Positions 4,116 to 64,000 of a DNA stretch of 64,000 nt are shown piece after piece (the first letter of the stretch is position 1; every line of letters begins with the position of its first letter). Origin of the DNA: Coprobacillus sp. (GTDB lineage Bacteria; Bacillota_I; Bacilli_A; RFN20; CAG-826); NCBI GenBank assembly GCA_021203905.1, contig JAJQAG010000004.1, forward strand, positions 129,939 to 193,938, given 5' to 3'. The position numbers and the translations under genes were made by a program. The notes under the pieces are model-generated. The model made no database searches. It was not told where the DNA came from and worked only from the letters and a program-made list of their open reading frames with translations.

Positions 4116-4259
4116 TACTTGGCCTCCTTATTTTAAATTCACTAAGGACTCGCTATGAAGGTCGAGAAGAATCTCAGTTAGTAAACCTTTTCTAGGCGGT
4201 TGTAGCTAGTGAGGCTAAACAACGCTTGATACTATAACATAGTTATAATATGCCCGCAA
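4116..4259 (-). promoter_or_regulatory. rplU operon promoter plus about 110-nt structured leader (L21-leader-like)
   Basis: On the minus strand: TTGCGG (4259-4254), 17 nt, TATAGT (4236-4231). The untranslated leader contains complementary segments (ACTAAC.../...CTTAGT, CTCG...CGAG). Firmicutes are known to have an L21 leader at this position. I did not verify the structure. Confidence 0.45.
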
Positions 4260-8196: not shown

Positions 8197-9210
8197 TTAC
8201 TTTGTCCTCGCCCTATCAGAAGCTAAACGATAAGGATTCTCGTTCTTTGCGACTAAATGGATGGTGTCAACATGCTTATAGGCACGATGGACCGCTACTG
8301 GGAAAGCAAAGATTGAGAAGAGAGCGGAAACAAAGAACGCGGCAAGGAAAGCCACGATAACAAACAAGAGACTTACAAGGAAGAAGAATAATTTAATCGT
8401 AATTAAGAAGATTATTCCTCCTACTGACCAGCCAAAGATTACTCCTGGCATCCTCACAAATCCCCAGCTTGCAACCTCTGTAAACATCTCACCCACAAAG
8501 GTATTATCCACACCCACAGTGAAGACAAATGCAAGCATGACATACGCTCCGGCAATACTTCCGATGCAAAGTCCTAAGCAGAGACCGAGATTATCGTGCT
8601 CGGCAATACCGGCAACTAGCATCGCCACAAAGGTGATAGAAGCAAGGGTAATTGCCCAAGCCCAGGATCTCTTTCTTCTTCTTAGATGCTTTGATTTCTC
8701 ATTCGCAATCCAGTTTTCTCTTCTCTTCATGAAGCAATCGTCACAAAGAGTCCAACCTTTTCTTCCACCTTTCCCTGTGGTGGATTTCTTGACATGCATA
8801 GTTTCGCCTTCAAGAATTGGTTTTTGACAATCATCACAAACACCAATTTGTCTCTTTGTGAGTTGCTGATATAGCTCTTCATCAATGACTCTTGTGGGAG
8901 CACTTCCTTGTGGCGCCGCTTGACTAGTAGCGGGCGCACTTGTAGTTTGACCACTGCTCACAGGGCTTTCTCCTACAAGGGCACTTGCCGGTGATGTCGG
9001 TGTTACAGCTGTTTTTGTGGAGTATAAGTCATCAATCGTGACATTAAAAATTTTCGCGAGTTTCGCCACAGTATCGAGATCTGGTTCGCTATTACCAGTC
9101 TCCCATTTAGAAACCGCTTGTGTAGTTACGTAAAGCTGACTCGCGAGATCGCTCTGCGAGAGATTATGAAGCTTACGATAGTATTGGATTCTTTCCCCTA
9201 TCTGTGACAT
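8197..9210 (-). CDS. membrane-anchored XRE-family HTH regulator with zinc-ribbon and about 4 TM helices
   Basis: N-terminal HTH_3 signature (YYRKLHNLSQSDLASQLYVTTQAVSKWETGNSEPD), an S/P/A/T-rich linker, CDDC...CDDC, and a hydrophobic C-terminal half. Confidence 0.8.
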   Translation of the reverse strand: MSQIGERIQYYRKLHNLSQSDLASQLYVTTQAVSKWETGNSEPDLDTVAKLAKIFNVTIDDLYSTKTAVTPTSPASALVGESPVSSGQTTSAPATSQAAPQGSAPTRVIDEELYQQLTKRQIGVCDDCQKPILEGETMHVKKSTTGKGGRKGWTLCDDCFMKRRENWIANEKSKHLRRRKRSWAWAITLASITFVAMLVAGIAEHDNLGLCLGLCIGSIAGAYVMLAFVFTVGVDNTFVGEMFTEVASWGFVRMPGVIFGWSVGGIIFLITIKLFFFLVSLLFVIVAFLAAFFVSALFSIFAFPVAVHRAYKHVDTIHLVAKNENPYRLASDRARTK

Positions 9211-14608: not shown

Positions 14609-14685
14609 TGGCGCCCTCGAGGCGACTCGAACGCCTGACCCACAGCTTAGAAGGCTGTTGCTCTATCCAACTGAGCTACGAGGGC
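14609..14685 (-). tRNA. tRNA-Arg (anticodon UCU), CCA encoded
   Basis: I folded the cloverleaf by hand: acceptor GCCCTCG/CGAGGGC, D-arm GCTC..GAGC, anticodon stem ACAGC/GCTGT with loop CTTCTAA, T-arm AGGCG-TTCGAGT-CGCCT, discriminator G plus CCA. Confidence 0.93.
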
Positions 14686-25924: not shown

Positions 25925-26392
25925 ATAGTATTAGACAGACTATGCTCTAATATCGATAAGTATGTTCCACTTTTAAGCAACTATTTTGCAGTGGCAACCC
26001 CAGATTACAGAACTTATCAAGATATGAACGATAATGTAATCCGTTACAACACTTACAGGAATCGATGGATTGGTGCGTATCTACAAGAACGGGGAATCAA
26101 AGTCATTCCAACCATTGGGTGGGGTAGTAAGCAAACCTTTAAGTATGCCTTTTCCGGGGTGGAAAAAGGAAGTGTCGTGATTGTCTCCACAATTGGTTGC
26201 CAAAAAGTTAAGAAAGATTTTATAAGGGGGTATAACAAGATGCGAAAAGTTATTAAACCATCGATAGTTATCGTTTATGGGAAACTAATCCCAGGAATAA
26301 AAGGCAAAATCATAAATTTTGCTTATGAAGACGCATTTTTAGGACATGATATATCCAATCATATCGAAAATATCAAAAAGGGGGTAAAATAA
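25925..26392 (+). pseudogene. 5'-truncated DUF4417-like gene remnant
   Basis: The frame is open from the stop at 25922-25924. ..PDYRTYQDMNDNVIRYNTYRNRWIGAYLQERGIKVIPTIGW..GSVVIVSTIG matches my recollection of the DUF4417 core (PDFS..Y..YRNRW..G..VIPT). There is no ATG and no SD; only a GTG at 25991. The N-terminal part of the family is missing. Confidence 0.55.
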
Positions 26393-26394
26393 AC

Positions 26395-26805
26395 ATGGGT
26401 GGACGAGGAGCATTTGCCGATTCTAACAATCAAAATTTCACCTTTGTTGAAGGTGGCCAAACTTACCGAACAATTAAAAAATATAAAGGGTTTGAAACAA
26501 TCGAAAAAATTGATCAAACCAAAAATACTGCTATCCCTTTTTATTCCCATTCTGGAAGCAACATATATGTAGTAGTCCAACAGAATAAGATTAAAAATAT
26601 AACAGTGTACGGAGAAAACCACAATGTAGTTACAAGTATTGATTTTTACAAAAAGCACCACGGAGTGATTCCCCATACGCATCCTCATGGGATTCATACA
26701 AATGATGGACCCGGAATCCCACCAACAGAAGAAGAATGGAAGTTGATACGATACATCAAAAAGAAAACGAGGTTAAAATGTTTCAATGATCAAAGCACCA
26801 ATTAA
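26395..26805 (+). CDS. small His-rich protein, possible orphan toxin module (136 aa)
   Basis: The ATG is preceded by AAGGGGG. The ORF starts MGGRGAF and contains the His cluster KKHHGVIPHTHPHGIHT. It is followed by two immunity-like paralogues. I could not confirm a family. Confidence 0.5.
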   Translation: MGGRGAFADSNNQNFTFVEGGQTYRTIKKYKGFETIEKIDQTKNTAIPFYSHSGSNIYVVVQQNKIKNITVYGENHNVVTSIDFYKKHHGVIPHTHPHGIHTNDGPGIPPTEEEWKLIRYIKKKTRLKCFNDQSTN

Positions 26806-27283
26806 TTATTATGGCGAATGCAAATCAATTAATATCTTCTATGACTACTACTATCCACTAAAGAGTGTTGAAGATTTTTGCAATGTCTGCATGGTTTTTG
26901 AGTACGATGGTGTCCTCTATCTTCTAGATGAGGAGATGGTGGATCCAGACATATTTCCTAACAATAAAAATGACGGATGCGATTACTCCATGAGAAGAAT
27001 CTACCGCTTGAAGTTACAAGACGACGGAACTTACCAAAGAACTTTACTTGCTACATATAGAACACTAGCAAAAGTCCTCACGGAATGGAAAGTAGACGGT
27101 GTCCCCTTAGAATCCATGTTTGGAATGGACAATATGAGAGTAATCGAAATGTATTCTCGAGAGTATCGAGAAGAAAACACACTAAACTTTAAAGAATATG
27201 CCGAGAGGTATAAGAGAAATAATGAACCAAACGACAAAAAGACCAAAAAACACAAAAAGAAATGGTGGGAAAAATTGCGATGA
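26786..27283 (+). CDS. immunity-like protein, paralogue 1 (165 aa)
   Basis: It overlaps the upstream ORF by 20 nt. It shares about one third of its residues with the next ORF (FY..YY, Y.G..Y...EE, FPN...DG.DY..R..Y.L...DG, LL..YR, W..DG.P) and has a Lys-rich tail. Confidence 0.6.
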   Translation: MIKAPINYYGECKSINIFYDYYYPLKSVEDFCNVCMVFEYDGVLYLLDEEMVDPDIFPNNKNDGCDYSMRRIYRLKLQDDGTYQRTLLATYRTLAKVLTEWKVDGVPLESMFGMDNMRVIEMYSREYREENTLNFKEYAERYKRNNEPNDKKTKKHKKKWWEKLR

Positions 27284-27663
27284 CAGACAATCACTTTGAT
27301 TCACTAGATGAATTCTACAATTTATACTATGAACGCCGCCCTTATCCTGGACCCGATTACATGGATATGGATTTCTATTACAAAGGAAAGTTTTATTGGT
27401 ACATGGAAGAAGGCATCATGAGAGAAGATTTTCCAAATTTATACCACGATGGGGGAGATTATGCCGTTAGAATTGCTTATGAATTGATACCAGAAGATGG
27501 GAAGCCGATGTCGAAAGAAAAGTACGATTTTACAAAGTGCAAGTGTATATTATTAGGAAAATATCGCTTGATGGAGGATATTCTCAATGATTGGATAATC
27601 GATGGGAAGCCATTTAAAGATGTCCTCATTGATAAAGAGACACATATTTACGATATTAGATAG
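27280..27663 (+). CDS. immunity-like protein, paralogue 2 (127 aa)
   Basis: I chose the start at ATG 27280, which overlaps the upstream TGA (ATGA) and has GGTGGG 10 nt upstream; the track start at 27262 is also possible. It is a paralogue of 26786..27283. Confidence 0.6.
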   Translation: MTDNHFDSLDEFYNLYYERRPYPGPDYMDMDFYYKGKFYWYMEEGIMREDFPNLYHDGGDYAVRIAYELIPEDGKPMSKEKYDFTKCKCILLGKYRLMEDILNDWIIDGKPFKDVLIDKETHIYDIR

Positions 27664-40840: not shown

Positions 40841-42700
40841 TTATTTAACTTTTTTAAAGATACACGCGGCAAGAGTGCCAAGCTTAATAGTGATGTGATA
40901 GGGTTTTCCTTCACTACCACCTAAACCAGTGGTAAGGGGGAGACCATTATATTGGTTCCACCCACCATAGACATCTTTATCACTATTAAAGATTTCTTCG
41001 TACTCCCCCTCTTCTATGACGGGAATGTCATAGTCGGGGTAAAACTCTGTCGTCATATTAAAGACAAACACCAAGAGATCATCATCCACTTTTCTTTGGA
41101 AAGCAAAGACAGATTGATCTCTGTTATCCACCATCAACCACTGGAAATGAATGGGATTATATTCTTCCCAGTACATGGCTTTTTCATGACAATAAATTCT
41201 ATTTAAGTCTCTTACAGTTCTTGAGACAGAATCATGCTTTGGATAAGACTTCAGATTCCAGGGGAGAGATTTATTTTCATTCCACTCATCAAAGGAACCG
41301 AGTTCGTTACCCATGAAGTTGAGTTTTTTACCAGGATGTGCAAACTGATAAGTATATAAGTTCCTTAATATGGCAAACTTACAATCATAGTCACCCCAGA
41401 GTTTATTAATAATAGTTCCCTTTCCATGCACGACTTCGTCGTGACTAAGGGGAAGAAGGAAGTTATCAGAATAGAAATATGCCATCGAGAAGGTGAGTTT
41501 GTTGTGGTCATATTTCTTATATATCGGATCAAGAGAGTAATACTTAAGGGTGTCGTTCATCCATCCAAGGTCCCACTTATAATCAAAGCCAAGACCTCCT
41601 TGATCTGTGCCTTTGGTCACCAAAGCGTAGTCACTCGAATCTTCCGCAATCATCATCACGGTGTCGTGAGCGATATGCATCTTCCCATTGAGTCTTTTAA
41701 TAAACTCCACCGCTCCTTCATTAAGGCCGTTACTCTTATCCCCATTATAGAAGATGATATTAGAGACCGCGTCCACTCTAATACCATCAAAGTGGTAATA
41801 ATCAACAAAGAAGTTCATCGCACTCATAAGGAAGCTTCTCACTGGATCTTTTCCAAGGTCAAATTGGAGGGAACCCCAAGGAGAAACTCTCCATCTATTT
41901 GAATATTCAAATAGTTTTGTGCCATCAAAATCCGCAAGAGCCCACTTATCGTTAGCGAAGTGAACAGGAGCAAAGTCTAAGATGACTCCGATATTAGCCT
42001 GATGTAAACGATCAATTAAAGACATTAATTGGAAGGGGTTTCCATACCTTGAATCCACTGAATAGAAACCTGTGGCTTGATAGCCCCAGCTTCCGTCAAA
42101 GGGATATTGAACAATCGGCATAATCTCAATATGGGTAAACCCATGTTCTTGAATATAAGGAATAAGATAATCCGCGATTTCTTCATAGGAGAGGACATGA
42201 CCATCCATAGCTCTCCCTTTCCAACTTCCAAGGTGCATTTCATAGATTGACATGGGTTGATCAAAGTTACGACTTCTTGACGCTAACCAAGGATCATCAT
42301 GCCACATGAAGTTATTGATATCGAATAACCTGGAACAAGTTCCAGGACGGAGTTCACTATAAAAAGCGAAAGGATCCGCACGATCAACATAGTTCCCTTT
42401 CGCATCTTTAAAATGGAATTTATATGATTGATAACTCACGAGGTGAGGAACAAAGACTTCCCACACTCCGCAGTCATCAACTTTGTGCATCTTATCTCTT
42501 CCGACATCCCACTCATTCCACTCTCCAATGACAGAGACGTCACTCGCACATGGAGCGTATAATCTAAATACAACACCATCTTCTTGGTCAAGTTTCACAA
42601 AGTGGGCACCAAAATACTTGTATGCCTCAAGTGTCTGACCCATAAGGAAGTCGTAAAGTAAACCAAATGCCATATTTAGAAACGAATGATTGAATATCAT
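40841..42700 (-). CDS. glgB: 1,4-alpha-glucan branching enzyme
   Basis: 619 aa with an N-terminal CBM48-like domain plus GH13 catalytic motifs (GIRVDAV, EDSS). The start could instead be ATG 42673. Confidence 0.95.
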   Translation of the reverse strand: MIFNHSFLNMAFGLLYDFLMGQTLEAYKYFGAHFVKLDQEDGVVFRLYAPCASDVSVIGEWNEWDVGRDKMHKVDDCGVWEVFVPHLVSYQSYKFHFKDAKGNYVDRADPFAFYSELRPGTCSRLFDINNFMWHDDPWLASRSRNFDQPMSIYEMHLGSWKGRAMDGHVLSYEEIADYLIPYIQEHGFTHIEIMPIVQYPFDGSWGYQATGFYSVDSRYGNPFQLMSLIDRLHQANIGVILDFAPVHFANDKWALADFDGTKLFEYSNRWRVSPWGSLQFDLGKDPVRSFLMSAMNFFVDYYHFDGIRVDAVSNIIFYNGDKSNGLNEGAVEFIKRLNGKMHIAHDTVMMIAEDSSDYALVTKGTDQGGLGFDYKWDLGWMNDTLKYYSLDPIYKKYDHNKLTFSMAYFYSDNFLLPLSHDEVVHGKGTIINKLWGDYDCKFAILRNLYTYQFAHPGKKLNFMGNELGSFDEWNENKSLPWNLKSYPKHDSVSRTVRDLNRIYCHEKAMYWEEYNPIHFQWLMVDNRDQSVFAFQRKVDDDLLVFVFNMTTEFYPDYDIPVIEEGEYEEIFNSDKDVYGGWNQYNGLPLTTGLGGSEGKPYHITIKLGTLAACIFKKVK

Positions 42701-42810
42701 TCTCTACTAAAAGTATAATGAGAACGGGTCAAATTTCATACTAAAAATTAATCTAAGATAATTTTTTATATGAGATGTGATATAGTAAAGAAATTAGAGA
42801 CGAGGTAGTT

Positions 42811-44025
42811 ATGGCAAAAGTAATGACAATCAATTCCGGAAGCTCCACTGTAAAGTTTAAACTTTACGAAATGCCGGAAGAAAAAGTTTTATGTTCAGGA
42901 AACTGTGAAAGAATCGGTGAAAAAACCGGAATTTTCACCTTTAAATGGGGTGATCAAAAAGAAGTCGATGACAAGATTGTCTTTCCCACTCACGGAGAGG
43001 CCGCTCAAAAGGTGATTGCCACCATTAAAGAAAAAGGAATTATTAAAGACTTTAGTGAAATAGAAGCCATTGGTCATCGTATCGTCCAAGGTGGTAAATA
43101 CTTCAGTGAGAGTGCTCTCTTTACAGAGGAGAACGAGAAGCTCATTGAATCTCTTATTCCTCTCGCTCCTCTTCATAATGCCGCACATTTAGCGTGCTAT
43201 CGAGCTTTTAAGGAAGTCTTACCCGATACTCCCGCCATTGCGGTCTTTGATACTGCGTATCATCAATCTATGGAAGAAGAGGATTATCTCTTTGCCATTC
43301 CTTATGAATTAAGTGAGAAATATAGCATCAGACGTTATGGAGCCCATGGCACCAGTCATCAATATCTCGCTCAAGAATGTAAGAAATACTTAGGTAAGAA
43401 TAAAGATCCCAAGATTATTACTTGTCATATTGGTTCAGGTGCCTCTATCACCGCGACAAGAAACTATAAATGTGTAGCCACTTCTATGGGACTTACACCT
43501 TTAGGGGGCATCATGATGGGGACAAGAACTGGAGATATGGATCCAAGTGTCTTTAATTATCTTGTTCAAGTCACTGGTCAGAGTGCGGAAGAGGTCTATC
43601 AGATGCTCAATAAGAAATCTGGCTTACTCGGTGTCAGTCAAATCTCTAATGATTCGAGAGATGTCTACGCGGCATTTGAAGCGGGTGACCCCAGAGCCAT
43701 TAGAACGATTAAACTCTTTAATCGACGTATTGCCGACTACATCGGACAATACTATGTCCGTCTAGGAGGATGTGATATCCTTGTGTGGTCCGCGGGAATT
43801 GGAGAGAATGAACCGAGGACAAGAAGAGATGTCTGTCGTCTCCTCCACGATTCTCTTGGAGTGGAGATTGATGAAAAACTCAATGAGACAATCCACGGCA
43901 CAGAAGCTGTCATCTCCACAAAGAAGAGCAAGATTAAGGTTGTGGTTATCCCCACAGATGAGGAAGTGATGATTGCTAGAGATGCCTTAAGAATTGCTAC
44001 CTCCTTAAAAGAAGGAAAGAAATAA
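42811..44025 (+). CDS. ackA: acetate kinase
   Basis: 404 aa with INSGSSTVKFKLYE, HRIVQGG and GAHGTSH motifs. Confidence 0.97.
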   Translation: MAKVMTINSGSSTVKFKLYEMPEEKVLCSGNCERIGEKTGIFTFKWGDQKEVDDKIVFPTHGEAAQKVIATIKEKGIIKDFSEIEAIGHRIVQGGKYFSESALFTEENEKLIESLIPLAPLHNAAHLACYRAFKEVLPDTPAIAVFDTAYHQSMEEEDYLFAIPYELSEKYSIRRYGAHGTSHQYLAQECKKYLGKNKDPKIITCHIGSGASITATRNYKCVATSMGLTPLGGIMMGTRTGDMDPSVFNYLVQVTGQSAEEVYQMLNKKSGLLGVSQISNDSRDVYAAFEAGDPRAIRTIKLFNRRIADYIGQYYVRLGGCDILVWSAGIGENEPRTRRDVCRLLHDSLGVEIDEKLNETIHGTEAVISTKKSKIKVVVIPTDEEVMIARDALRIATSLKEGKK

Positions 44026-50731: not shown

Positions 50732-52123
50732 ATGCCAGAGTTACCAGAAGTCGAAACAATTCGCAATATCTTAAAATCCATTGTGATTGGAAAAACCATT
50801 TCAAACGTGGATGTTTTTCGTGAAAAAACTATTTTAAGTGATGTGAATGAATTCAAAAATAATTTAGTGGGAGCCACGATAAAAGATATAGAGAGAAAAG
50901 GGAAATTTCTCATCTTTGTTTACGACAATAATTACGCTTTACTCTCTCACCTACGCATGGAAGGAAAGTATTATCTCTTAGAGGAAGAGACACCAAATAC
51001 TAAGTATGCTAGAGTGGTCTTTCACTTTACAGATAACACCAAATTGTGCTTTGATGATTCGCGATGCTTCGGGATTATGAAATTAGCAAAAACAGCGGAA
51101 ATTTACGAAGAAAAAGAATTAAAAAGCTTAGGATTAGAGCCTTTTGAAATTTCTGATGTCGATTTTTTGATGAAACGGAATAAGAAAAGTAATAAACCCA
51201 TTAAGTCAACCTTGCTAGATCAAACTCAAATTGCTGGTCTTGGGAACATTTATGCGGATGAAGTTCTCTTCTATAGTGGTATTAACCCACTAGAAAAAGC
51301 GAAAGATATAACTAAAGATCAATGGAAAACGATTATTAAAAATGCCGTTATTATTTTAAATAACGCGATTAAAGATGGAGGCAGTACAGTGCATTCCTAT
51401 CACCCCGCTGATGGAATTGACGGCAATTTCCAAACAAAATTAAAAGCGTACGGAAAACGAGGAGAAAATTGTCCCAATTGTGGACACGAATTGTATTATA
51501 AAAAGATTAATGGACGAGGCTCTACTTATTGCCCGATGTGTCAAAAGAAGCAACACCCGCCTATCTTTGTTGGTTTAACTGGTCCTATCTCTAGCGGAAA
51601 ATCTGTTGTTCTTGAAATATTCAAGAGAGAAGGTTGCTCTGTTCTTTCATGCGATGAGGTGGTTCATGAGTTATATAAACAACCAGAGGTTATTACAAAA
51701 ATCTCCTCTATCACGGGCTTAAAATTTGGAAATGAAGTTGATAGAAATGCTTTACGAGAATACACAAACGGCAATCTTAAGGCTCTAAAACGCATTGATA
51801 ATTACATCCATCCTCTTGTGAGAAAGTATGTAAGCGAATTTCTTGATGAAGCCTGTGGTAGCGCTGTTGTGGAAGTTCCACTTCTTTTTGAAAGTCATTT
51901 CCAAGATCTATTTGATTACATTGTCGCAGTTTCTATCTCTAAAGATAGGCAGTTAAAATACCTTAGAGCGAGAGAAGAGCATTTTGAAGAAATGCTTGAA
52001 TTAAACGGAAAAGAAAACACCTTCTACACAGAGAAGGCGGATTATGTCATAAAAAATGACGGAGATTTAGAACAACTTTCGAAGGAAGTTAAGACTTTTC
52101 TTCGTAAAGTCCAGCGAGATTAG
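50732..52123 (+). CDS. mutM-coaE: fusion protein: formamidopyrimidine-DNA glycosylase (aa 1-272) + dephospho-CoA kinase (aa 277-463)
   Basis: The N-terminus is MPELPEVET, with H2TH and zinc finger CPNCG...CPMCQ. It continues without a stop into IFVGLTGPISSGKS (the CoaE P-loop) and a full CoaE-length tail. Confidence 0.9.
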   Translation: MPELPEVETIRNILKSIVIGKTISNVDVFREKTILSDVNEFKNNLVGATIKDIERKGKFLIFVYDNNYALLSHLRMEGKYYLLEEETPNTKYARVVFHFTDNTKLCFDDSRCFGIMKLAKTAEIYEEKELKSLGLEPFEISDVDFLMKRNKKSNKPIKSTLLDQTQIAGLGNIYADEVLFYSGINPLEKAKDITKDQWKTIIKNAVIILNNAIKDGGSTVHSYHPADGIDGNFQTKLKAYGKRGENCPNCGHELYYKKINGRGSTYCPMCQKKQHPPIFVGLTGPISSGKSVVLEIFKREGCSVLSCDEVVHELYKQPEVITKISSITGLKFGNEVDRNALREYTNGNLKALKRIDNYIHPLVRKYVSEFLDEACGSAVVEVPLLFESHFQDLFDYIVAVSISKDRQLKYLRAREEHFEEMLELNGKENTFYTEKADYVIKNDGDLEQLSKEVKTFLRKVQRD

Positions 52124-52979
52124 AAACCACAATCTCATGGTCACAATCAAGAGCAATAAGATCGACGAGATCTTTTGCTTTGTATCGAGAATCTTTACTC
52201 ACAGTAATATAGTGTTCAAATAATTCATTAAAGGAGAACTTTGAAACATAAATTGTTTCAAGTTGTCTCTCATTTCTAAACTTAATAATCTTTTTGATGA
52301 TTTGATCACGGATGTAATCATTCGCAAATTCTTCTCCAAAATTATCCAAGACGAGAAGATTACAGCGGGAGTATCTTTTAATCATCTCTTCTCTCTCTTC
52401 TTCACTAGCTTTATTCATTTCGTTAATGCGGTAGACACTATCAAGATAGCAGATTTTGTCCACTCCATCTTTAGCGATTTCATTCGTAATCGCGGTGGCT
52501 AGATATGACTTACCAGTATTCTCCGCTCCTTGAATATAAGTAGACTTACGATCAAAGTAGGCTCTTTGAATGGCATCATATCTCTTCTTAGAGGTATCAA
52601 GATTTCCGGTCTTAATATCAAGAATGTCCCACTCTTGGGGATAATCTCTAAGAATGTATCTTGTATTTAGTGTGGTTAACTTAAGGATTTGTTGGCAGGG
52701 AATAAATAGTTCTTCCACCACTCCAGAGTGAACTTTGATATTACTGGTGACAAAGCTCTCTTTCGAGCACTTTTCAATTCCAGGACATTTGGAACAAATT
52801 AAATGATCACAGACATAGTCATAAACACTGTAAATATATTCATCAAGGAGCTTCTCATCAAGATTAGCGGGTAATGGAACTTCTTTTTCGTGCTTTTTAA
52901 TAAAAGCTTTCATCGAAGCAATTTGCTTGGTGTCTCTTTTTATTCCTAATTCATCGATGTTGATATTAATCTTTTCCAT
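52089..52979 (-). CDS. dnaI: primosomal helicase loader DnaI
   Basis: 296 aa with an N-terminal Cys cluster (CSKCPGIEKC), AAA+ Walker A GAENTGKSYL and Walker B LLVLDNFG. It lies downstream of dnaB, as in Bacillus. Confidence 0.88.
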   Translation of the reverse strand: MEKININIDELGIKRDTKQIASMKAFIKKHEKEVPLPANLDEKLLDEYIYSVYDYVCDHLICSKCPGIEKCSKESFVTSNIKVHSGVVEELFIPCQQILKLTTLNTRYILRDYPQEWDILDIKTGNLDTSKKRYDAIQRAYFDRKSTYIQGAENTGKSYLATAITNEIAKDGVDKICYLDSVYRINEMNKASEEEREEMIKRYSRCNLLVLDNFGEEFANDYIRDQIIKKIIKFRNERQLETIYVSKFSFNELFEHYITVSKDSRYKAKDLVDLIALDCDHEIVVSNLAGLYEEKS

Positions 52980-54228
52980 GGCTTATTGAGTTGATGAGAG
53001 CGTCCCAATCCTCCTTACTGATTTCATCGTCTTCTTCCTCACCTTTCTTAGAAGGAGTATGAGGAGAAGGAAGTTTAGTGGTCGTGTTATAAAGATACTC
53101 AAAAGCATCTTTTGCACAAGTGCATTTCTGTCTCTTTAGTGAGGCTCCTACCTTATCAAGGTAGGAAAACTTAAGAATGTTATTACAACGATCAAGGGTA
53201 AATTCAATTAAAGCGTTTAAGACTGAATTCGCTAAACCATACTTCATAGAAATATAGTTAATGGCTTTGATATCTGAGTCTGCGGGGGTGGTATAACCTT
53301 GTAAACGAGAGAGGTAATCAGTGGGTGAAAGGGTTTCACAAGTGTTGATCTTCTCTCCTAGTTCTGTTGTGGAGGAAACCTTATCACCACTTGATTTCTC
53401 CTTGGGAGTGTACATCACTCTATCGTGATGATAGAGAAGGATTTGACTAAGTAAGGTGTCAAAGTCCACTCTCTCACCTTTTGGTTTCTCACTATCGTAG
53501 ATCTTAAGGAAGATCTCCGCTCCTTGTTCTTCTTGAATTCCATTAAGAGTGAAGAGGGAGACAAGGCGATTGAGTTCGTCTCTTGTTAGAGCGTCTTGAT
53601 AATAGGCATAACCCCCATTCTTCTCTTTAACAAACTGGAAGAAGAGATCAACATCAAATTCAGAAACTATGTTTCTGGTACGGCGACTCTTCATCTTTTT
53701 ATTGTGGGAAGTCGTAATATCAAACATCGCACTATCAATATCCGCGATCCCAAAGGCTTCTTGGAAATTAGAGGTGATGTCATCGCCTTCATCATGACCT
53801 TCACTAAGATAATATAAAGACTTAATTCTCTCCGCTTCATCTTTTCCAAGAGAACTTTCAAAAAGAGAACTTCGATAGGGATCCACAAAGAATTGACTAG
53901 GAACGACAGGGGCTCTTAATTCATAGTGGTAGATGCTCGCTCCATTAGTGGTTTCAAGTTTTGTCTTAAGAAGTCCAATCCCTTCTAGTTTTTCTCTTGC
54001 ATCCATAAAGGTTTGAGAATTCATCTTGAGACGATTCCAAAAGTTTTCGTGAGTGGATAAGGAGAAGACTTCTTGATTTCTTGCTTCCGCCATAAAAGAA
54101 AAATATAAAGCCACGGCTTCATATCCAATAATGGGTTGATAGAGATTAACAAGAGTCTCTCGATCGTAGTCCGCAACGAGAGAACCAAATCTCACACTAA
54201 AGTAATCTTGTCCACTTACTATTACCAT
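52966..54228 (-). CDS. dnaB: replication initiation/membrane attachment protein DnaB (DnaD-like, Bacillus nomenclature)
   Basis: 420 aa. The N-terminal ...DRETLVNLYQPIIGYEAVALYFSF is typical of the DnaB_2 family. It keeps the dnaB-dnaI operon arrangement. Confidence 0.8.
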   Translation of the reverse strand: MVIVSGQDYFSVRFGSLVADYDRETLVNLYQPIIGYEAVALYFSFMAEARNQEVFSLSTHENFWNRLKMNSQTFMDAREKLEGIGLLKTKLETTNGASIYHYELRAPVVPSQFFVDPYRSSLFESSLGKDEAERIKSLYYLSEGHDEGDDITSNFQEAFGIADIDSAMFDITTSHNKKMKSRRTRNIVSEFDVDLFFQFVKEKNGGYAYYQDALTRDELNRLVSLFTLNGIQEEQGAEIFLKIYDSEKPKGERVDFDTLLSQILLYHHDRVMYTPKEKSSGDKVSSTTELGEKINTCETLSPTDYLSRLQGYTTPADSDIKAINYISMKYGLANSVLNALIEFTLDRCNNILKFSYLDKVGASLKRQKCTCAKDAFEYLYNTTTKLPSPHTPSKKGEEEDDEISKEDWDALINSISHGKD

Positions 54229-54236
54229 ACCCTCTT

Positions 54237-54265
54237 ATTATCTAGAAAAGAAAAGGACTATTCAA
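54237..54265 (-). promoter_or_regulatory. dnaB promoter, near-leaderless
   Basis: On the minus strand: TTGAAT (54265-54260), 17 nt, GATAAT (54242-54237), then AAGAGGGT and the ATG at 54228. Confidence 0.5.
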
Positions 54266-54289: not shown

Positions 54290-54390
54290 GGTGGAAAACT
54301 TCTCCACCATCTAATTGTGAATAAGTGTTCCACCAAATAAGGCTTTTATGAGTCCTCTTCACATTTATCCACATTTCATTTTGTGCATAA
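54290..54390. promoter_or_regulatory. DnaA-box cluster
   Basis: Three exact matches to TTATNCACA: 54316-54324 (minus, TTATTCACA), 54365-54373 (plus, TTATCCACA) and 54382-54390 (minus, TTATGCACA). Degenerate boxes lie at 54290-54298, 54300-54308 and 54326-54334. Confidence 0.7.
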
Positions 54391-54479
54391 CTTTTTCTCT
54401 CCCCTTTGAAATTATTTAAATAATTTACAAAAGGAGAGCGGTAATATACACTATTAGATAGTAAAGGACACGTCTAATT

Positions 54480-55439
54480 ATGGGAAAAAGAATCGCTATT
54501 TTAACTAGTGGAGGTGACGCTCCAGGAATGAATGCGGCAATCAGTGCCATTGTGAGAAAAGGCCTTGATTGTGGGCATGAAATGTTTGTGGTCTACGATG
54601 GTTTCTTAGGCCTCGTCAATGGAGATATCAAACAAGTGGATCGAAAGTTTGTCTCCGGAATCATCAATAAAGGTGGCACTGTGATTAGAACCGCCCGTTA
54701 TCCTGAGTTTGCGGATGTCAGAGTCCAAAAGAAAGCCGTTAAAGTACTTGAAGAAAATAAAATAGATGTCCTCATCGGTATTGGAGGAGATGGAACCTAC
54801 CATGGTCTTTTAGGTCTCCACAATTGTGGAGCGAAGGTGATTGGTCTTCCTGGTACTATCGATAATGATATTGCCACTAGTGATGAAACCATAGGCTTCA
54901 ACACCGCTCTCAACACCATCTGTGATGCCCTTGAGAAATTAAAAGATACTTCCTCTTCTCACTGCCGTTGTGCGGTTGTGGAAGTCATGGGTCGTTATTG
55001 TGCAGATCTTTCAATCTACGCTGCGATTGCAGAGAGTGCGGAGTGTTTAGTGTGTTATGACCACATTATGCCGGATGAAGAATTATTTGAAAGAATTAGA
55101 AAAGTTAAAGAGAGAAAGAGTCACTGCTTAGTGGTGGTTAGTGAGAACTTGCTCGATATTAATGAACTCGCGAATAAGATTGAAGAAGCGACAGGATTTG
55201 AGGCAAAACCAGAAGTTTTAGGTCGTCTCCAAAGAGGTGGAGATCCATGTCCTCAAGATCGAATCTTAGCCGCGAGACTTGGTTGCTATTCCATTGATTT
55301 AATCAACCAAGGTGTCAGTGGAGTGGTTGTCGGCACCAAGGGAACTGAAGTTGCCGCAACAGGAATTAAAGAGGGCTTCGAGCTTCCTCGTACTGATCGT
55401 ACCTCCTATTTTGAAATTGCCGATGTGCTTGGAAAATAA
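54480..55439 (+). CDS. pfkA: ATP-dependent 6-phosphofructokinase
   Basis: 319 aa with ILTSGGDAPGMNAA, IGGDGT and PGTIDND motifs. Confidence 0.97.
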   Translation: MGKRIAILTSGGDAPGMNAAISAIVRKGLDCGHEMFVVYDGFLGLVNGDIKQVDRKFVSGIINKGGTVIRTARYPEFADVRVQKKAVKVLEENKIDVLIGIGGDGTYHGLLGLHNCGAKVIGLPGTIDNDIATSDETIGFNTALNTICDALEKLKDTSSSHCRCAVVEVMGRYCADLSIYAAIAESAECLVCYDHIMPDEELFERIRKVKERKSHCLVVVSENLLDINELANKIEEATGFEAKPEVLGRLQRGGDPCPQDRILAARLGCYSIDLINQGVSGVVVGTKGTEVAATGIKEGFELPRTDRTSYFEIADVLGK

Positions 55440-58083: not shown

Positions 58084-60000
58084 ATGCTTCAACAGATTAC
58101 TCTCTCTTGTCTATTACTTATCGGAAACATGGCGGGTCTCACTGCCTCTTTTTTTACAAATGATGACGAAATGTATAGAGAAGGGTGTTGCCTTATTGAT
58201 GCACCGTATGCGAGTTGCCTTGATAATGAAAGAGAGATTACGGGGGTTGATGAAACATACATTCTCACTGTAAGTGAAGAGGTTAACTCTCTTACCTATC
58301 GAGGAGAGGTGACACTCCTCGAGTATACGATTAAAGAGGGAACAGAAGTTACATGCCTCTTGACTGATTTTATTGATTTAGGAAATATCATCTTTGATTT
58401 TTATCATGATGAAGAGTACATCGCTTCCTACGCTTTGTACTTTGCTAGAGATGACGAAGGGGCCTTTTATTCAAGCGGGAGAAGCCTTGACTGTGCAAAA
58501 TCTCTCGCGGGTCAAGAACTCGGTTATGTTTTTCTTGCGAGTGAAGAAGAGCCAGAAGAAGAGTTAGAAAGCGAGACTTCAAGTGGTCACCGAACCCATG
58601 GAAAGATCTATGGCTACTTTAAGTGGATGGACGATGATGAACAGATTCATCCACTTGTGGGAGCAAAAGTAAAATTAAAAGTAAGAGGAAGCTTCTATAG
58701 TGAAACAACCTATACAGATGATAATGGTTACTACTGTTTTGAGTATAGTAATGTTTTCTACTATGGCTCAGGAATGGCAACAGTTACCTTAAGTTTAGAG
58801 AATGATCTTATTAAAGTTAAAAACTCAAATGTCTATGCCTATAAATACAAACTACAAAAAAGAGATGTTACCTATGAACTATCACAAACCTTCTCCCCTG
58901 AACAAGATGGTGATTTTGGAAAGGCGGCATCAATCTTTCAAGGATTCTATTGCTTTTCCAAAGTAGCGAAAGAATTTGACTACAAGAATAAATTATCTAA
59001 GATTTCCATTATTTATCCTTCTAGTCGGGTGATGTTAATGTCGTTCATGTGGGGAGAAAGAAAAATCGAGGTGGCCAACTATATAGAGAAAAGTGGCTAC
59101 CCAAAAGCCTATGCCTCGTGGGATTCATTTGGGCATGAATATGCTCATTTTGTATGCGCTCGCTACGGATTCTTTTCTTGGTCATCTTCTAATATAGCCC
59201 ACAACAGCATCATAAATCGTATTGAATTGATTATCTTAAATGATGGTGACTCCGCGAGAAAAGCAAAAAGAGTCTCCACTCGTTTGGCGTTTAATGAAGC
59301 CTGGGCCGCCACTTGGTCGGTATTAATTCAACAGTACTTTGATGATGAATGGAAAAGTGTCGCCACAGTGGGAGATAGTTGCTATACCAACTCTTCGGGA
59401 GTAGATGATGATTTTGATGACTATGACACTGACCACCCCGAAAGATATGGGGATAGTGAGGAGTTAGCTCTCTCTAAGATTCTCTATAAACTCGCCACTT
59501 TTGAAACCGATGAATATGATAAATTTTCCCTGGGATTTGAAGAGTTTTGGAGAATTTCTTACGAAAATAAGACAAAGTCTCTCTATGATTTTATCGATGC
59601 GATGTATGAGCAAGGATATAGTAAGAGTGATCTTGGACTTTTACTTGGTCAATTTAATGTCACCCCAAATAAAATCCAAATCACTAATTACTATTTAGAT
59701 ACCTGCCCTACATTAACTTGGTCAGCTTATATGGGAACAGCATACTTTAACTATAATCGTTTTGATATCTATTTCCTTGATGACAATGGAAACGAGATCC
59801 TAAAAAAGAAAGTCAAATCACATGGAGAAGTTACTTGTTCCTACACCTTAAAAGAAGAGGATTGGCAATTAATTCTCGATTCATGTCAAGAGTGCTTCTC
59901 TATCAATATGGTGGTGTGGCAAACAACTTATCGAGATACTGGGGGTTATTATACAGAAACCTTTAGTTATGATCTACCCACTCAATACTATTATCAATAA
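58084..60000 (+). CDS. secreted or anchored putative zinc metallopeptidase, paralogue 1 (638 aa)
   Basis: GGGAGG SD. It has an N-terminal hydrophobic signal/anchor, an acidic linker, and a carboxypeptidase-regulatory-like segment (HGKIYGYF...PLVGAKVKL...TDDNGYYCFEY). HEYAH lies at 59134-59148, with NEAW (Glu at 59296-59298) 50 residues later. Confidence 0.6.
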   Translation: MLQQITLSCLLLIGNMAGLTASFFTNDDEMYREGCCLIDAPYASCLDNEREITGVDETYILTVSEEVNSLTYRGEVTLLEYTIKEGTEVTCLLTDFIDLGNIIFDFYHDEEYIASYALYFARDDEGAFYSSGRSLDCAKSLAGQELGYVFLASEEEPEEELESETSSGHRTHGKIYGYFKWMDDDEQIHPLVGAKVKLKVRGSFYSETTYTDDNGYYCFEYSNVFYYGSGMATVTLSLENDLIKVKNSNVYAYKYKLQKRDVTYELSQTFSPEQDGDFGKAASIFQGFYCFSKVAKEFDYKNKLSKISIIYPSSRVMLMSFMWGERKIEVANYIEKSGYPKAYASWDSFGHEYAHFVCARYGFFSWSSSNIAHNSIINRIELIILNDGDSARKAKRVSTRLAFNEAWAATWSVLIQQYFDDEWKSVATVGDSCYTNSSGVDDDFDDYDTDHPERYGDSEELALSKILYKLATFETDEYDKFSLGFEEFWRISYENKTKSLYDFIDAMYEQGYSKSDLGLLLGQFNVTPNKIQITNYYLDTCPTLTWSAYMGTAYFNYNRFDIYFLDDNGNEILKKKVKSHGEVTCSYTLKEEDWQLILDSCQECFSINMVVWQTTYRDTGGYYTETFSYDLPTQYYYQ

Positions 60001-60070: not shown

Positions 60071-62014
60071 TTGTTTCGTCAGTTATTGCTTTCTTGTCTT
60101 TTAGTGGTTAGTTCTCTCTCAGGGATGGTGACAACCTCTATTTTTACTAACTCCTACGAATACGATAGTGGTGATTACATTTGTGATGACTCTCCTTATG
60201 TGAGTTGCCAAGATAATGAGAGAGAAGTAACGAATAAAAAAGAATCCTATGTTTTTGTGGCGAGTCAAGAAATTGACAGTGTCAAATGGGAGGGAGAGGT
60301 CACCCTTAGCCACTACGAAATAAGAAATGAAAATGAAATGACTGCCATTGTCACTAATTATATCGATCAGGGAGAAATTACGTTCCACTTCTACTATCAA
60401 AAGGAATACGTCTGCTCCTATGCTTTATATTTTGCTTGTAGTGAAGATGGAACATTCTATTCCAGCGGAAGGACACTCGATTGCGCAAAAATGCTTGCGG
60501 ATCAACAAGTTAACTACACCTTTTTAAGTAATGATGAAGAAGAGGAAGATGAACTTGTCACTATAGAAGAGAGCACTTCCTTTGGTTTTGGAACCCATGG
60601 TAAGGTCTATGGGTGGTTCCACTGGTGTGGCGATGATGGTGAATCCTATCCCCTTGTAGGAGCGAGGGTCACCTTAAGAATTGGGGGGAGTTGGTATAGT
60701 CAAGTCACCCATACAGACGAAGATGGATATTATTGCTTTGAATATCAAAAGGTTTGGTATTTAGGAAGCGGTCGTCCAACAATCACTCTCCGCCTTCAAA
60801 ACGAGAAAATAAAAGTGAAATCTTCAGGAGTCTATGCCTATAAGTTTAAGATGGCGGAAAAAGACACGACGATGGAGTGTTCGCGAACCTTCACCATTGA
60901 AGAAGATGGAGATTTTGCCAAAGCCGCAGCTCTTTTTCAAGCGGGTTATCTCTATTCTAATTTTGCCTTTGAACATGACGAAGGTGGCATTCTCAAATCA
61001 TGTAAAATAAGATATCCTTCGAATTATGACACTATCTGTTATACCGAAAACATTCGAAGAATAAATATCCCTAATACCATTAATGAAAACTCACCCTCTT
61101 GTTACATGGCGTGGGATACAATTGGGCATGAGTATTGTCATCATGTCCAGGCTTGTCACAAAATAGATCATGTTAGTAAGCACCACAATTCTGCTTATAA
61201 CGACATCGACTATCTCATTGATCGATCTTATTCGACCATGAATAAAGTCAAACATGAGGGAACGACTCTCTCTCTCGATGAGGGATTTGCCACTTATTGG
61301 GGAGTGGTAGCCCAACAGTCCTTTGACCCTAGATGGTGGTATGTCCCCACAGTGGGAGATGCATCCTACACCTCAAGTGGGGGCGCCAATTATAGTTTAG
61401 ATGTCTATTACGATTCCCAAAGCCGTAACCTTGGAGATTGCCAAGAGAGAGCAATTGCTAGAATTCTATATAAGCTCACTTCCGATAAGATTGATACCTA
61501 TGACCGCTTTGCCCTTGGTTTTGATACCATCTGGGAACTCTATGAAAAATATTTACCCACCACCATGAGTGAGTTTATTAACATTCTCTATGAGCAAGGT
61601 TATGACAAATATGATCTTGGACTCTTGCTTGGTCAGTATGGTGTCACCCCGAGTAGCATGAACATCACAAATAATAGCTATGATACATGCCCTACATATA
61701 CGTGGTCGACCTCTTCTGGGAGTAAATACTTCCAATATAACGAATTTGACTTTGTCATCCTCTCTAATGAGGGAGAAGAGTTAATAAACCACCATTTCGT
61801 CTCCGATAATGATGAAGACACCTATTCTTACACTCTCAGTGAAGAAGAGTGGCAACTCATTCAGAATTCCACTTCCCAGTTGTACTATGCCTATCTGGTG
61901 ATGTGGCAAACTGATGATTTTGTCACCGGAGGTTACTATTCAAACTTATATACCTTCTATCTTCCAAGACGGATTGTGATTATTCCGAGACCCGGGGATC
62001 TGATTATCACTTAA
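60071..62014 (+). CDS. secreted or anchored putative zinc metallopeptidase, paralogue 2 (647 aa)
   Basis: TTG start with AAGAGGAG 8 nt upstream. It is collinear with paralogue 1. HEYCH lies at 61127-61141, with LDEGFATYW (Glu at 61280-61282) 47 residues later. Confidence 0.6.
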   Translation: MFRQLLLSCLLVVSSLSGMVTTSIFTNSYEYDSGDYICDDSPYVSCQDNEREVTNKKESYVFVASQEIDSVKWEGEVTLSHYEIRNENEMTAIVTNYIDQGEITFHFYYQKEYVCSYALYFACSEDGTFYSSGRTLDCAKMLADQQVNYTFLSNDEEEEDELVTIEESTSFGFGTHGKVYGWFHWCGDDGESYPLVGARVTLRIGGSWYSQVTHTDEDGYYCFEYQKVWYLGSGRPTITLRLQNEKIKVKSSGVYAYKFKMAEKDTTMECSRTFTIEEDGDFAKAAALFQAGYLYSNFAFEHDEGGILKSCKIRYPSNYDTICYTENIRRINIPNTINENSPSCYMAWDTIGHEYCHHVQACHKIDHVSKHHNSAYNDIDYLIDRSYSTMNKVKHEGTTLSLDEGFATYWGVVAQQSFDPRWWYVPTVGDASYTSSGGANYSLDVYYDSQSRNLGDCQERAIARILYKLTSDKIDTYDRFALGFDTIWELYEKYLPTTMSEFINILYEQGYDKYDLGLLLGQYGVTPSSMNITNNSYDTCPTYTWSTSSGSKYFQYNEFDFVILSNEGEELINHHFVSDNDEDTYSYTLSEEEWQLIQNSTSQLYYAYLVMWQTDDFVTGGYYSNLYTFYLPRRIVIIPRPGDLIIT

Positions 62015-63418: not shown

Positions 63419-64000
63419 TTAATTAATGATTTCTACCTCAGCTTTTTCAATGGCGGTTTTTATCATCGCCTCATAATCAATTTTAGCTTCAAATTTTCTT
63501 ATTTCATCGAGTTTTGGAGCAGTTTTTGGATTTTTTGGAGCGAATATTGTGCAACAGTCTTCAAAGGGGCGAATGGAGATATCATAGGTTTTGATGTGCT
63601 GTGCTACTTTGATAATCTCAAGTTTATCCATGACCGCAAGTGGACGAATAATAGGGAAGTTGGTTACCTCATTTATCGCTTGTAGAGAATCGAGGGTTTG
63701 AGAGGCCACTTGACCCACACTCTCTCCGGTGGCAATGACTTTACAATGTCTCTCTCTAGCGACTTTCTCTGCAATTCGATACATCATCCTTCTCATGATG
63801 GTGATGCAATAGCTCTCATCAATGTTTTTATAAATCGCTTCTTGAATCTCCGTAAAGGGGATAATTGTGAGACGAATCTGACTTTGGTATTTCGTTAGAG
63901 TTTTAAGTAGGTCTCTAATCTTATAGATAACTCCGACATTAGTGTAGGGAGGAGAAGCAAAATGAATACACTCAAGAGTGATGCCTCTTCTCATAAGTAA
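63419..64000 (-). CDS. thiI: tRNA 4-thiouridine synthase ThiI, C-terminal part (runs off the window)
   Basis: ..IHFASPPYT.., ATGESVGQVASQTL and RPLAVMDKLEII match the ThiI PP-loop domain. The N-terminus lies beyond 64000. Confidence 0.9.
   Translation of the reverse strand, partial: LLMRRGITLECIHFASPPYTNVGVIYKIRDLLKTLTKYQSQIRLTIIPFTEIQEAIYKNIDESYCITIMRRMMYRIAEKVARERHCKVIATGESVGQVASQTLDSLQAINEVTNFPIIRPLAVMDKLEIIKVAQHIKTYDISIRPFEDCCTIFAPKNPKTAPKLDEIRKFEAKIDYEAMIKTAIEKAEVEIIN

Follow-up and report, generated by a model that had tools for sequence, protein, structure and literature searches.

Paired DnaA boxes upstream of dnaB-dnaI as a probable DnaA-binding control region for helicase-loader genes in Coprobacillus and its relatives

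The DNA considered here is a 64,000-nt stretch of a metagenome-assembled genome of an uncultured Coprobacillus sp. (contig JAJQAG010000004.1 of assembly GCA_021203905.1), hereafter called the window, in which all positions are counted from its first letter. Between the divergently oriented genes dnaB and pfkA, the window harbours a dense cluster of 9-nt motifs that match the consensus box of the initiator protein DnaA. We propose that the segment at 54290-54390 is a DnaA-binding regulatory region for the helicase-loader operon made up of dnaB and dnaI, and comparisons with related genomes lead us to regard this proposal as probable. The boxes are organised in two palindromic pairs, and their distance to dnaB has been kept throughout a clade of gut and rumen bacteria.

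The 9-mer consensus TTATNCACA was searched on both strands of the whole window. Three exact boxes were identified within 75 bp of the dnaB-pfkA intergenic region, both by pattern search and by direct reading, namely TTATTCACA at 54316-54324 (minus strand), TTATCCACA at 54365-54373 (plus strand) and TTATGCACA at 54382-54390 (minus strand). They are accompanied by three degenerate boxes, of which GGTGGAAAA (54290-54298; the reverse complement of TTTTCCACC) and TTCTCCACC (54300-54308) have two mismatches each, and TGTTCCACC (54326-54334) has three. An earlier sequence-only reading of this DNA had reported the three exact and three weaker boxes, an inverted pair GGTGGA-N7-TCCACC among them and an 18-nt perfect adenine/thymine (AT) palindrome at 54409-54426; our searches recovered every one of these features exactly as described. 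The remainder of the 64 kb contains two exact boxes, at 8504 and 21792, for a chance expectation of ~2.0 per window. When exact boxes were given a weight of 3 and one-mismatch boxes a weight of 1, the dnaB-pfkA cluster came out as the best 150-bp stretch of the window, its score being 9 and that of the next stretch 3. Of 1000 simulated windows (first-order Markov model), not one had at least three exact boxes in any 100 bp, and 5 had at least two. As the 251-bp dnaB-pfkA intergenic region is identical in an independent assembly from another sequencing run (Logan contig L001), the cluster is not an assembly artefact. Thus, noncoding 9-mers of the DnaA-box type are clustered at this site beyond chance.

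The boxes are arranged as palindromic pairs, a feature that the sequence-only reading had not seen. The distal pair, in which the boxes face each other, spans 54365-54390 and consists of the two exact boxes TTATCCACA (plus) and TTATGCACA (minus) separated by an 8-nt spacer. In the direction of dnaB it reads TTATGCACA-AAATGAAA-TGTGGATAA, i.e. TTATGCACA-N8-TGTGGATAA. The proximal pair, whose boxes diverge, is found at 54290-54308 and reads GGTGGAAAA-c-TTCTCCACC on the plus strand (N1 spacer), or GGTGGAGAA-g-TTTTCCACC in the direction of dnaB. A 26-bp tandem duplication, corresponding to the direct repeat D1 (54291-54314 and 54317-54340), has generated a second copy of the diverging pair at 54316-54334, in which the exact box TTATTCACA is combined with the weak TGTTCCACC.

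To place this arrangement in context, we compared 80 genome loci encoding relatives of the window DnaB. Exact boxes are present at a density of 1.91 per kb in the 400 bp upstream of dnaB and of 0.063 per kb elsewhere, which represents a 30-fold enrichment. The enrichment is entirely due to one clade of roughly 37 genomes whose DnaB proteins are at least 33% identical; most of them come from rumen or gut and bear the label Bacilli, Erysipelotrichaceae or Coprobacillus. All members of the clade share the same gene order, with dnaE, polA and mutM-coaE in one direction, then dnaI and dnaB in the opposite direction, and then pfkA, (ROK), thrS and infC in the first direction again. The facing pair was found in 38/38 loci in which pfkA and dnaB are back to back (the window included), at 167 ± 9 bp from the dnaB start codon. 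The distance between the boxes and the pfkA start codon is variable, ranging from 78 to 174 bp and reaching 941 bp in one locus (L019). The constant distance on one side and the variable distance on the other indicate that the cluster belongs to dnaB. For this reason, we favour a DnaA-dependent transcriptional control site, which was also the first choice of the sequence-only reading: in all 38 loci the boxes are fixed relative to the dnaB start and promoter, and they are not fixed relative to pfkA.

Two alignments were used to define which parts of the intergenic region are conserved, one of 25 rumen-clade loci (A3) and one of the subgroup to which the window belongs (A2; L082, L085, L002, L003 and L007). 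The columns that do not vary in A3 coincide with five elements: a central AT palindrome, the two promoter hexamers TTGAAA and CATAAT, the facing pair and, within the diverging pair, the half TGTGGAnAA. The columns of the facing pair are invariant in A2 as well. In most genomes, the diverging pair is 85-86 bp nearer to dnaB than the facing pair, and 78.5 bp nearer in the window subgroup. The diverging pair of the window is homologous to TGTGGATAA-N2-TTwTCCmCA of its relatives and is conserved as GGTGGAkAAGTTwTCCAC in the five loci of A2. In the closest relative, L082 (89% identical DnaB), the intergenic region is 87% identical to that of the window, as compared with 70% identity at the third codon positions of dnaB and 65% at those of pfkA, and the substitutions avoid the conserved box pairs, except for one terminal base of the proximal pair. 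The exact box at 54316-54324 is kept in L082, degraded in L085 and absent in L002, L003 and L007, and the three-mismatch box at 54326-54334 is not conserved, being altered even in L082. The second copy of the diverging pair is lineage-specific.

The rumen and gut clade (L004-L041) has an additional feature midway between the two box pairs, namely an AT-only palindrome, GATTTATA-N3-5-TATAAATC, located at about -130 to -110 from the dnaB start codon (A3 columns 88-109). It is missing from the window subgroup, and we know of no regulator motif that it matches.

The identities of the flanking genes support the divergent dnaB/pfkA setting previously described. dnaB (52966-54228, minus strand) codes for the helicase-loading and DNA-remodelling protein of Firmicutes, not for the helicase itself. 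Its product has Pfam DnaB_2 and precomputed WHD_DnaB domains, and its best NCBIfam match, 'replicative helicase loading/DNA remodeling protein DnaB', is full length with an E-value of 2e-33, below the curated cut-off. The dnaI-like gene (52089-52979, minus strand) codes for an AAA+ helicase loader whose best NCBIfam match is the primosomal protein DnaI (E = 2e-21, below cut-off), with a weak Pfam match to IstB_IS21. The two genes overlap by 14 nt and hence presumably form one operon, and their order is kept in most of the relative loci that we fetched. pfkA (54480-55439, plus strand) codes for an ATP-dependent 6-phosphofructokinase, with matches to Pfam PFK and, above cut-off, to NCBIfam PRK03202. 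A consensus scan predicts a promoter for dnaB-dnaI, TTGAAT-N17-GATAAT, at 54237-54265 on the minus strand. It lies 24 nt downstream of the nearest box, consistent with the earlier placement of the cluster just upstream of a -35 element, and its -10 hexamer ends 8 nt before the dnaB start codon. It is equivalent to TTGAAA-N17-CATAAT, which is conserved in the 25 relatives of A3.

Several further observations concern the beginning of the dnaB transcript. In the window (54228-54242) and in L082, L002, L003 and L007, just 7-9 nt separate a -10-like hexamer, GATAAT or TATAAT, from the dnaB start codon, and an ATAAT motif is found at this distance across the window subgroup. A Shine-Dalgarno sequence is missing before dnaB in L003. 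Given this short distance and the lack of a Shine-Dalgarno sequence in L003, the dnaB mRNA of the window subgroup may be leaderless or nearly so. In the rumen clade, dnaB has an ordinary leader of ~25 nt with GGAGG. An Rfam scan of the whole window did not detect any family in the dnaB-pfkA spacer.

How the boxes might act can be outlined as follows, bearing in mind that we infer the occupancy by DnaA, the position of the promoter and the transcriptional effect with its sign. DnaA monomers would occupy the two palindromic box pairs. The proximal pair would border directly on the dnaB promoter from the upstream side, its position in the relatives with TTGAAA-N17-CATAAT being roughly -51 to -70 relative to the putative transcription start, and the distal pair would lie 78-86 bp farther upstream. 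Transcription of the loader genes would thereby be made dependent on the amount or the activity of the initiator. Repression could operate by occlusion of the A/T-rich UP-element region, or by means of a DnaA bridge between the pairs, which are ~8 helical turns (~85 bp) apart. By analogy with the dnaB promoter of Bacillus subtilis, discussed below, we lean slightly towards repression, activation from the position of the proximal pair being almost equally possible.

A number of points weigh against control of dnaB-dnaI by DnaA. Simple steric repression is not obvious, as the boxes do not cover the core promoter but precede the -35 element. The dnaB promoter predicted in the window matches the consensus at just 9 of 12 positions, and its -10 hexamer is unusually close to the start codon. 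The proximal pair of the window is degenerate, with two mismatches in each box, and several relatives in A3 have lost the second half of this pair. In addition, the more distant genomes among the 80 loci have no boxes upstream of dnaB. They have either the ancestral co-directional order dnaB-dnaI-thrS or a dnaB gene back to back with a pyk-like gene, so that DnaA control would be clade-specific and not obligatory.

In an intermediate clade (L036, L037, L045 and L047), dnaB is divergent from a pyruvate-kinase-like gene whose product starts with MNISKNTKIICTIGP, and DnaA boxes are missing. We rejected the view that they are an automatic result of the inversion of dnaB, because the clade with the pyk-like neighbour has the inversion and no boxes. 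Glycolytic genes repeatedly adjoin dnaB.

The same box module is found in other genetic contexts. When metagenomes were scanned for the facing module TTwTCCACA-N8-TGTGGAwAA, 80 loci were retrieved, six of which belong to the pfkA/dnaB clade. In seven unrelated contigs of low guanine-plus-cytosine (GC) content, the module is located ~100 bp upstream of dnaA, which was identified by Pfam Bac_DnaA in L119, L139, L140 and L164 and by tblastn in L112, L114 and L150. These modules are often part of arrays of 5-11 exact boxes. Their presence upstream of dnaA indicates that the facing module is a genuine DnaA-site arrangement. Ten other loci, with ~50% GC, display the order murC, box cluster, DnaD-domain gene and gene for an AAA+ loader-like ATPase (PRK06835); they are represented by L134 (4747-5015) and also comprise L093, L111, L115, L116, L121, L127, L138, L153 and L156. 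From the murC side, the cluster starts with two directly adjoining boxes, and ~140 bp further on there is a row of three abutting boxes, which an N8 spacer separates from one facing box. It has five exact boxes, or six to seven when one-mismatch sites are counted. The sequence TTATCCACATTATCCACA is found directly after the murC stop codon, where it overlaps a terminator-like hairpin. Homologues of the DnaD-domain protein are labelled Lachnospiraceae or Eubacteriales at source. In these contigs, a second Firmicute lineage places a DnaA-box cluster before a helicase-loading operon.

Other explanations can be envisaged for the cluster upstream of dnaB. It might be mainly a DnaA-titrating or buffering locus, comparable to the box clusters of B. 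subtilis or to E. coli datA, that lowers the free DnaA available to oriC, with any effect on dnaB being secondary, which we consider unlikely. The high-affinity boxes of the cluster are indeed intergenic and away from dnaA, and in B. subtilis the loss of six box clusters causes early initiation, while several of these clusters also regulate their neighbours (PMC3245932; PMC2533591). Titration and regulation are therefore not exclusive, and a secondary role in titration is compatible with the control of dnaB-dnaI. However, three to four strong conserved boxes are few for a sink, and a pure sink would have no need of a position that varies by just ~9 bp relative to the start and promoter of dnaB over 38 genomes.

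The E. coli datA and DARS elements are small DnaA-box clusters, some of them with boxes in opposite orientation, with a site for an architectural protein in between. The two box pairs of the rumen clade, which flank a conserved AT palindrome, loosely resemble them. It is tempting to speculate that two box pairs around such a palindrome represent a dedicated DnaA-bridged nucleoprotein switch whose role would go beyond repressing a single promoter, either as a Firmicute counterpart of datA and DARS or as a node joining pfkA and helicase loading, an idea that we find as doubtful as that of a titrating locus. To our knowledge, no element of the datA/DARS type is known in Firmicutes. The tight link to the promoter at dnaB argues for transcription control instead. 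If a bridged switch did exist, the Lachnospiraceae parallel would point to a widespread and undescribed initiator-to-loader feedback circuit in Firmicutes.

It is less likely still that pfkA is the main target of the boxes or a further one, so that glycolytic flux would be coupled to initiator activity, with the AT palindrome being part of the same switch. In every genome with boxes, pfkA and dnaB are back to back, and in the window the distal pair is ~34 nt upstream of the -35 element of a pfkA promoter predicted by the consensus scan (TTTACA-N17-TACACT, 54424-54452, plus strand). The perfect palindrome AAATTATTTAAATAATTT (54409-54426), which forms the core of an imperfect inverted repeat with 21-nt arms (54397-54438), overlaps this -35 element. 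Both are conserved in the window subgroup: the arms AAATTATT and AATAATTT are kept with a 2-3-nt spacer in all five loci of A2, as is AATAATTTACAAA of the predicted promoter. In contrast, the palindrome AAATTATTTAAATAATTT is absent from the larger rumen clade, and the distance that is held constant is that to dnaB. We have rejected pfkA as the primary target because of its variable distance to the boxes. It may be co-regulated, without the boxes being positionally tied to it.

The palindromic pairs could also serve as operators of some other dimeric transcription factor, the likeness of its half-site to a DnaA box being fortuitous. Strict inverted symmetry and constant spacers (N8 and N1-2) are indeed seen in both modules, as would be expected of dimeric regulators. 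We nevertheless deem this improbable: each half-site agrees with the DnaA consensus at 8-9 of its 9 positions, two distinct spacings and relative orientations coexist, and the N8 module fronts dnaA in multi-box clusters and abuts head-to-tail arrays in the Lachnospiraceae-type loci.

Least probable of all is that the region serves as a replication origin, be it a secondary origin or the chromosomal oriC at a site away from dnaA, in which DnaA bound to the boxes would open nearby AT-rich DNA; the sequence-only reading had already ranked this option below the others, and the trio scan, the AT profile and the gene directions agree in lacking origin features. The arguments in its favour are that the window does not contain dnaA, as noticed before (the Pfam scans of open reading frames (ORFs) of 100 aa or more detected no Bac_DnaA-domain protein), that it has a single box cluster, that AT-only palindromes adjoin the boxes, and that gene strand and GC skew switch with the polarity of an origin at ~42.7 kb, 11.5 kb away. 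However, there is no gene-strand switch at the dnaB-pfkA site itself, since in all relatives the flanking genes are co-directional (dnaE, polA and mutM-coaE on one side, pfkA, thrS and infC on the other) and dnaB-dnaI alone are opposite. The boxes form inverted pairs rather than head-to-tail arrays. No DnaA-trio array is found beside any box; (TAR)3 motifs occur at chance level (8 found versus 6.2 expected), and the only copy nearby is inside the dnaB coding sequence. No unwinding element was detected in a fine AT profile, with a minimum of 27.5% GC per 40 nt; the AT content nowhere markedly exceeds that of ordinary intergenic DNA.

As for the switch at ~42.7 kb, the change from minus to plus strand takes place at 42700-42811, between glgB (minus) and ackA (plus), where there is no DnaA-box cluster. 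The plus-strand block that follows runs from ackA to rplT over ~20.6 kb and ends in a convergent junction with a thiI-like gene (63419-63994), and the rplT/thiI junction is also present in most relatives examined. Because a convergent junction closes the block, the switch would seem to mark one end of an inverted block of ~20 kb rather than an origin. GC skew tracks the coding strand: calculated per gene at 4-fold degenerate sites, it is about -0.2 to -0.4 on the coding strand, whatever the strand or region. Codon bias dominates these sites, and GC skew thus has no independent bearing on replication direction; its use for this purpose was dropped.

Some other features of the window deserve mention. 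Close to dnaI, mutM (Fapy-DNA glycosylase) and coaE (dephospho-CoA kinase) are fused in one ORF of 463 aa (50732-52123, plus strand), and tblastn yielded a match of similar extent at the corresponding position in ~35 relatives. The 3' end of this gene overlaps the 3' end of the convergent dnaI by 35 nt (52089-52123), which leaves no room for terminators. Between thrS and infC, two large ORFs on the plus strand (58084-60000 and 60071-62014; 638 and 647 aa) have no Pfam match, and L082 has an ORF of 640 aa at the corresponding position. No T-box was detected before thrS by Rfam, and thrS overlaps the preceding ROK gene. Between ileS and ftsZ, at 25991-27663, four small ORFs, one with DUF4417 and three without a Pfam match, constitute a plus-strand island in an otherwise minus-strand region. 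Their AT skew by codon position differs, and this island may be foreign or mobile DNA. The only Rfam matches of the whole window are an L21 leader upstream of rplU and one tRNA, at 4135-4211 and 14612-14685, respectively, both on the minus strand.

If dnaB-dnaI is indeed controlled by DnaA as we propose, the one experimentally reported case of a link between DnaA and the loader gene dnaB, that of B. subtilis, would be extended to a large uncultured clade of gut and rumen bacteria. The architecture would be much clearer and evolutionarily fixed, with two palindromic pairs whose distances to a conserved promoter are set. In combination with the Lachnospiraceae-type cluster, this would suggest that initiator feedback on the supply of helicase loader is a recurrent design in Firmicutes. 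The fragment also provides a compact substrate to address how oppositely oriented DnaA boxes act on transcription. As the link between DnaA and dnaB has been reported in B. subtilis, our proposal does not overturn current views.

The closest known system is the dnaB promoter of B. subtilis. According to a passage of PMC2533591 that cites Goranov 2005, dnaB is negatively regulated by DnaA at its promoter in this bacterium, which is a precedent for the control site proposed here. As far as that passage goes, the two cases have in common that DnaA acts at the promoter region of a loader gene of the same family and that initiator activity feeds into loader expression. Nevertheless, in Bacillus-like genomes dnaB follows a co-oriented gene, and three Bacillus or Gottfriedia loci have no exact boxes within 400 bp upstream of it, whereas the window clade has an inverted two-gene dnaB-dnaI unit with its own promoter and a fixed two-pair architecture through which DnaA would bind and regulate. 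In B. subtilis, dnaB is not among the eight stable regions identified by ChAP-chip (Ishikawa 2007, PMC2533591). The box clusters that B. subtilis has outside oriC are likewise intergenic, away from oriC and composed of TTATNCACA boxes; they regulate neighbouring genes (sda, ywlC and yydA) and restrain initiation (PMC2533591; Okumura 2011, PMC3245932). Compared with them, the locus described here has fewer conserved boxes, at a fixed spacing from the promoter.

The arrays found at dnaA promoters or close to oriC share with our locus the identical module TTwTCCACA-N8-TGTGGAwAA, ~100 bp upstream of dnaA in the seven contigs mentioned above. They differ in being mostly larger, with up to 11 exact boxes, and in their location beside dnaA, whereas neither dnaA nor trios nor an unwinding element were found at the window site. 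In other phyla, the DNA upstream of dnaB, here the gene of the helicase, is bound by DnaA in Mycobacterium tuberculosis, and boxes are predicted at this position in Caulobacter crescentus (PMC7738170; PMC8203912). There, the target is the helicase itself and not the Firmicute loader DnaB, and the box arrangements are different. What these systems have in common with the proposed control of dnaB-dnaI is the use of DnaA as a transcription factor for the helicase or its loading step.

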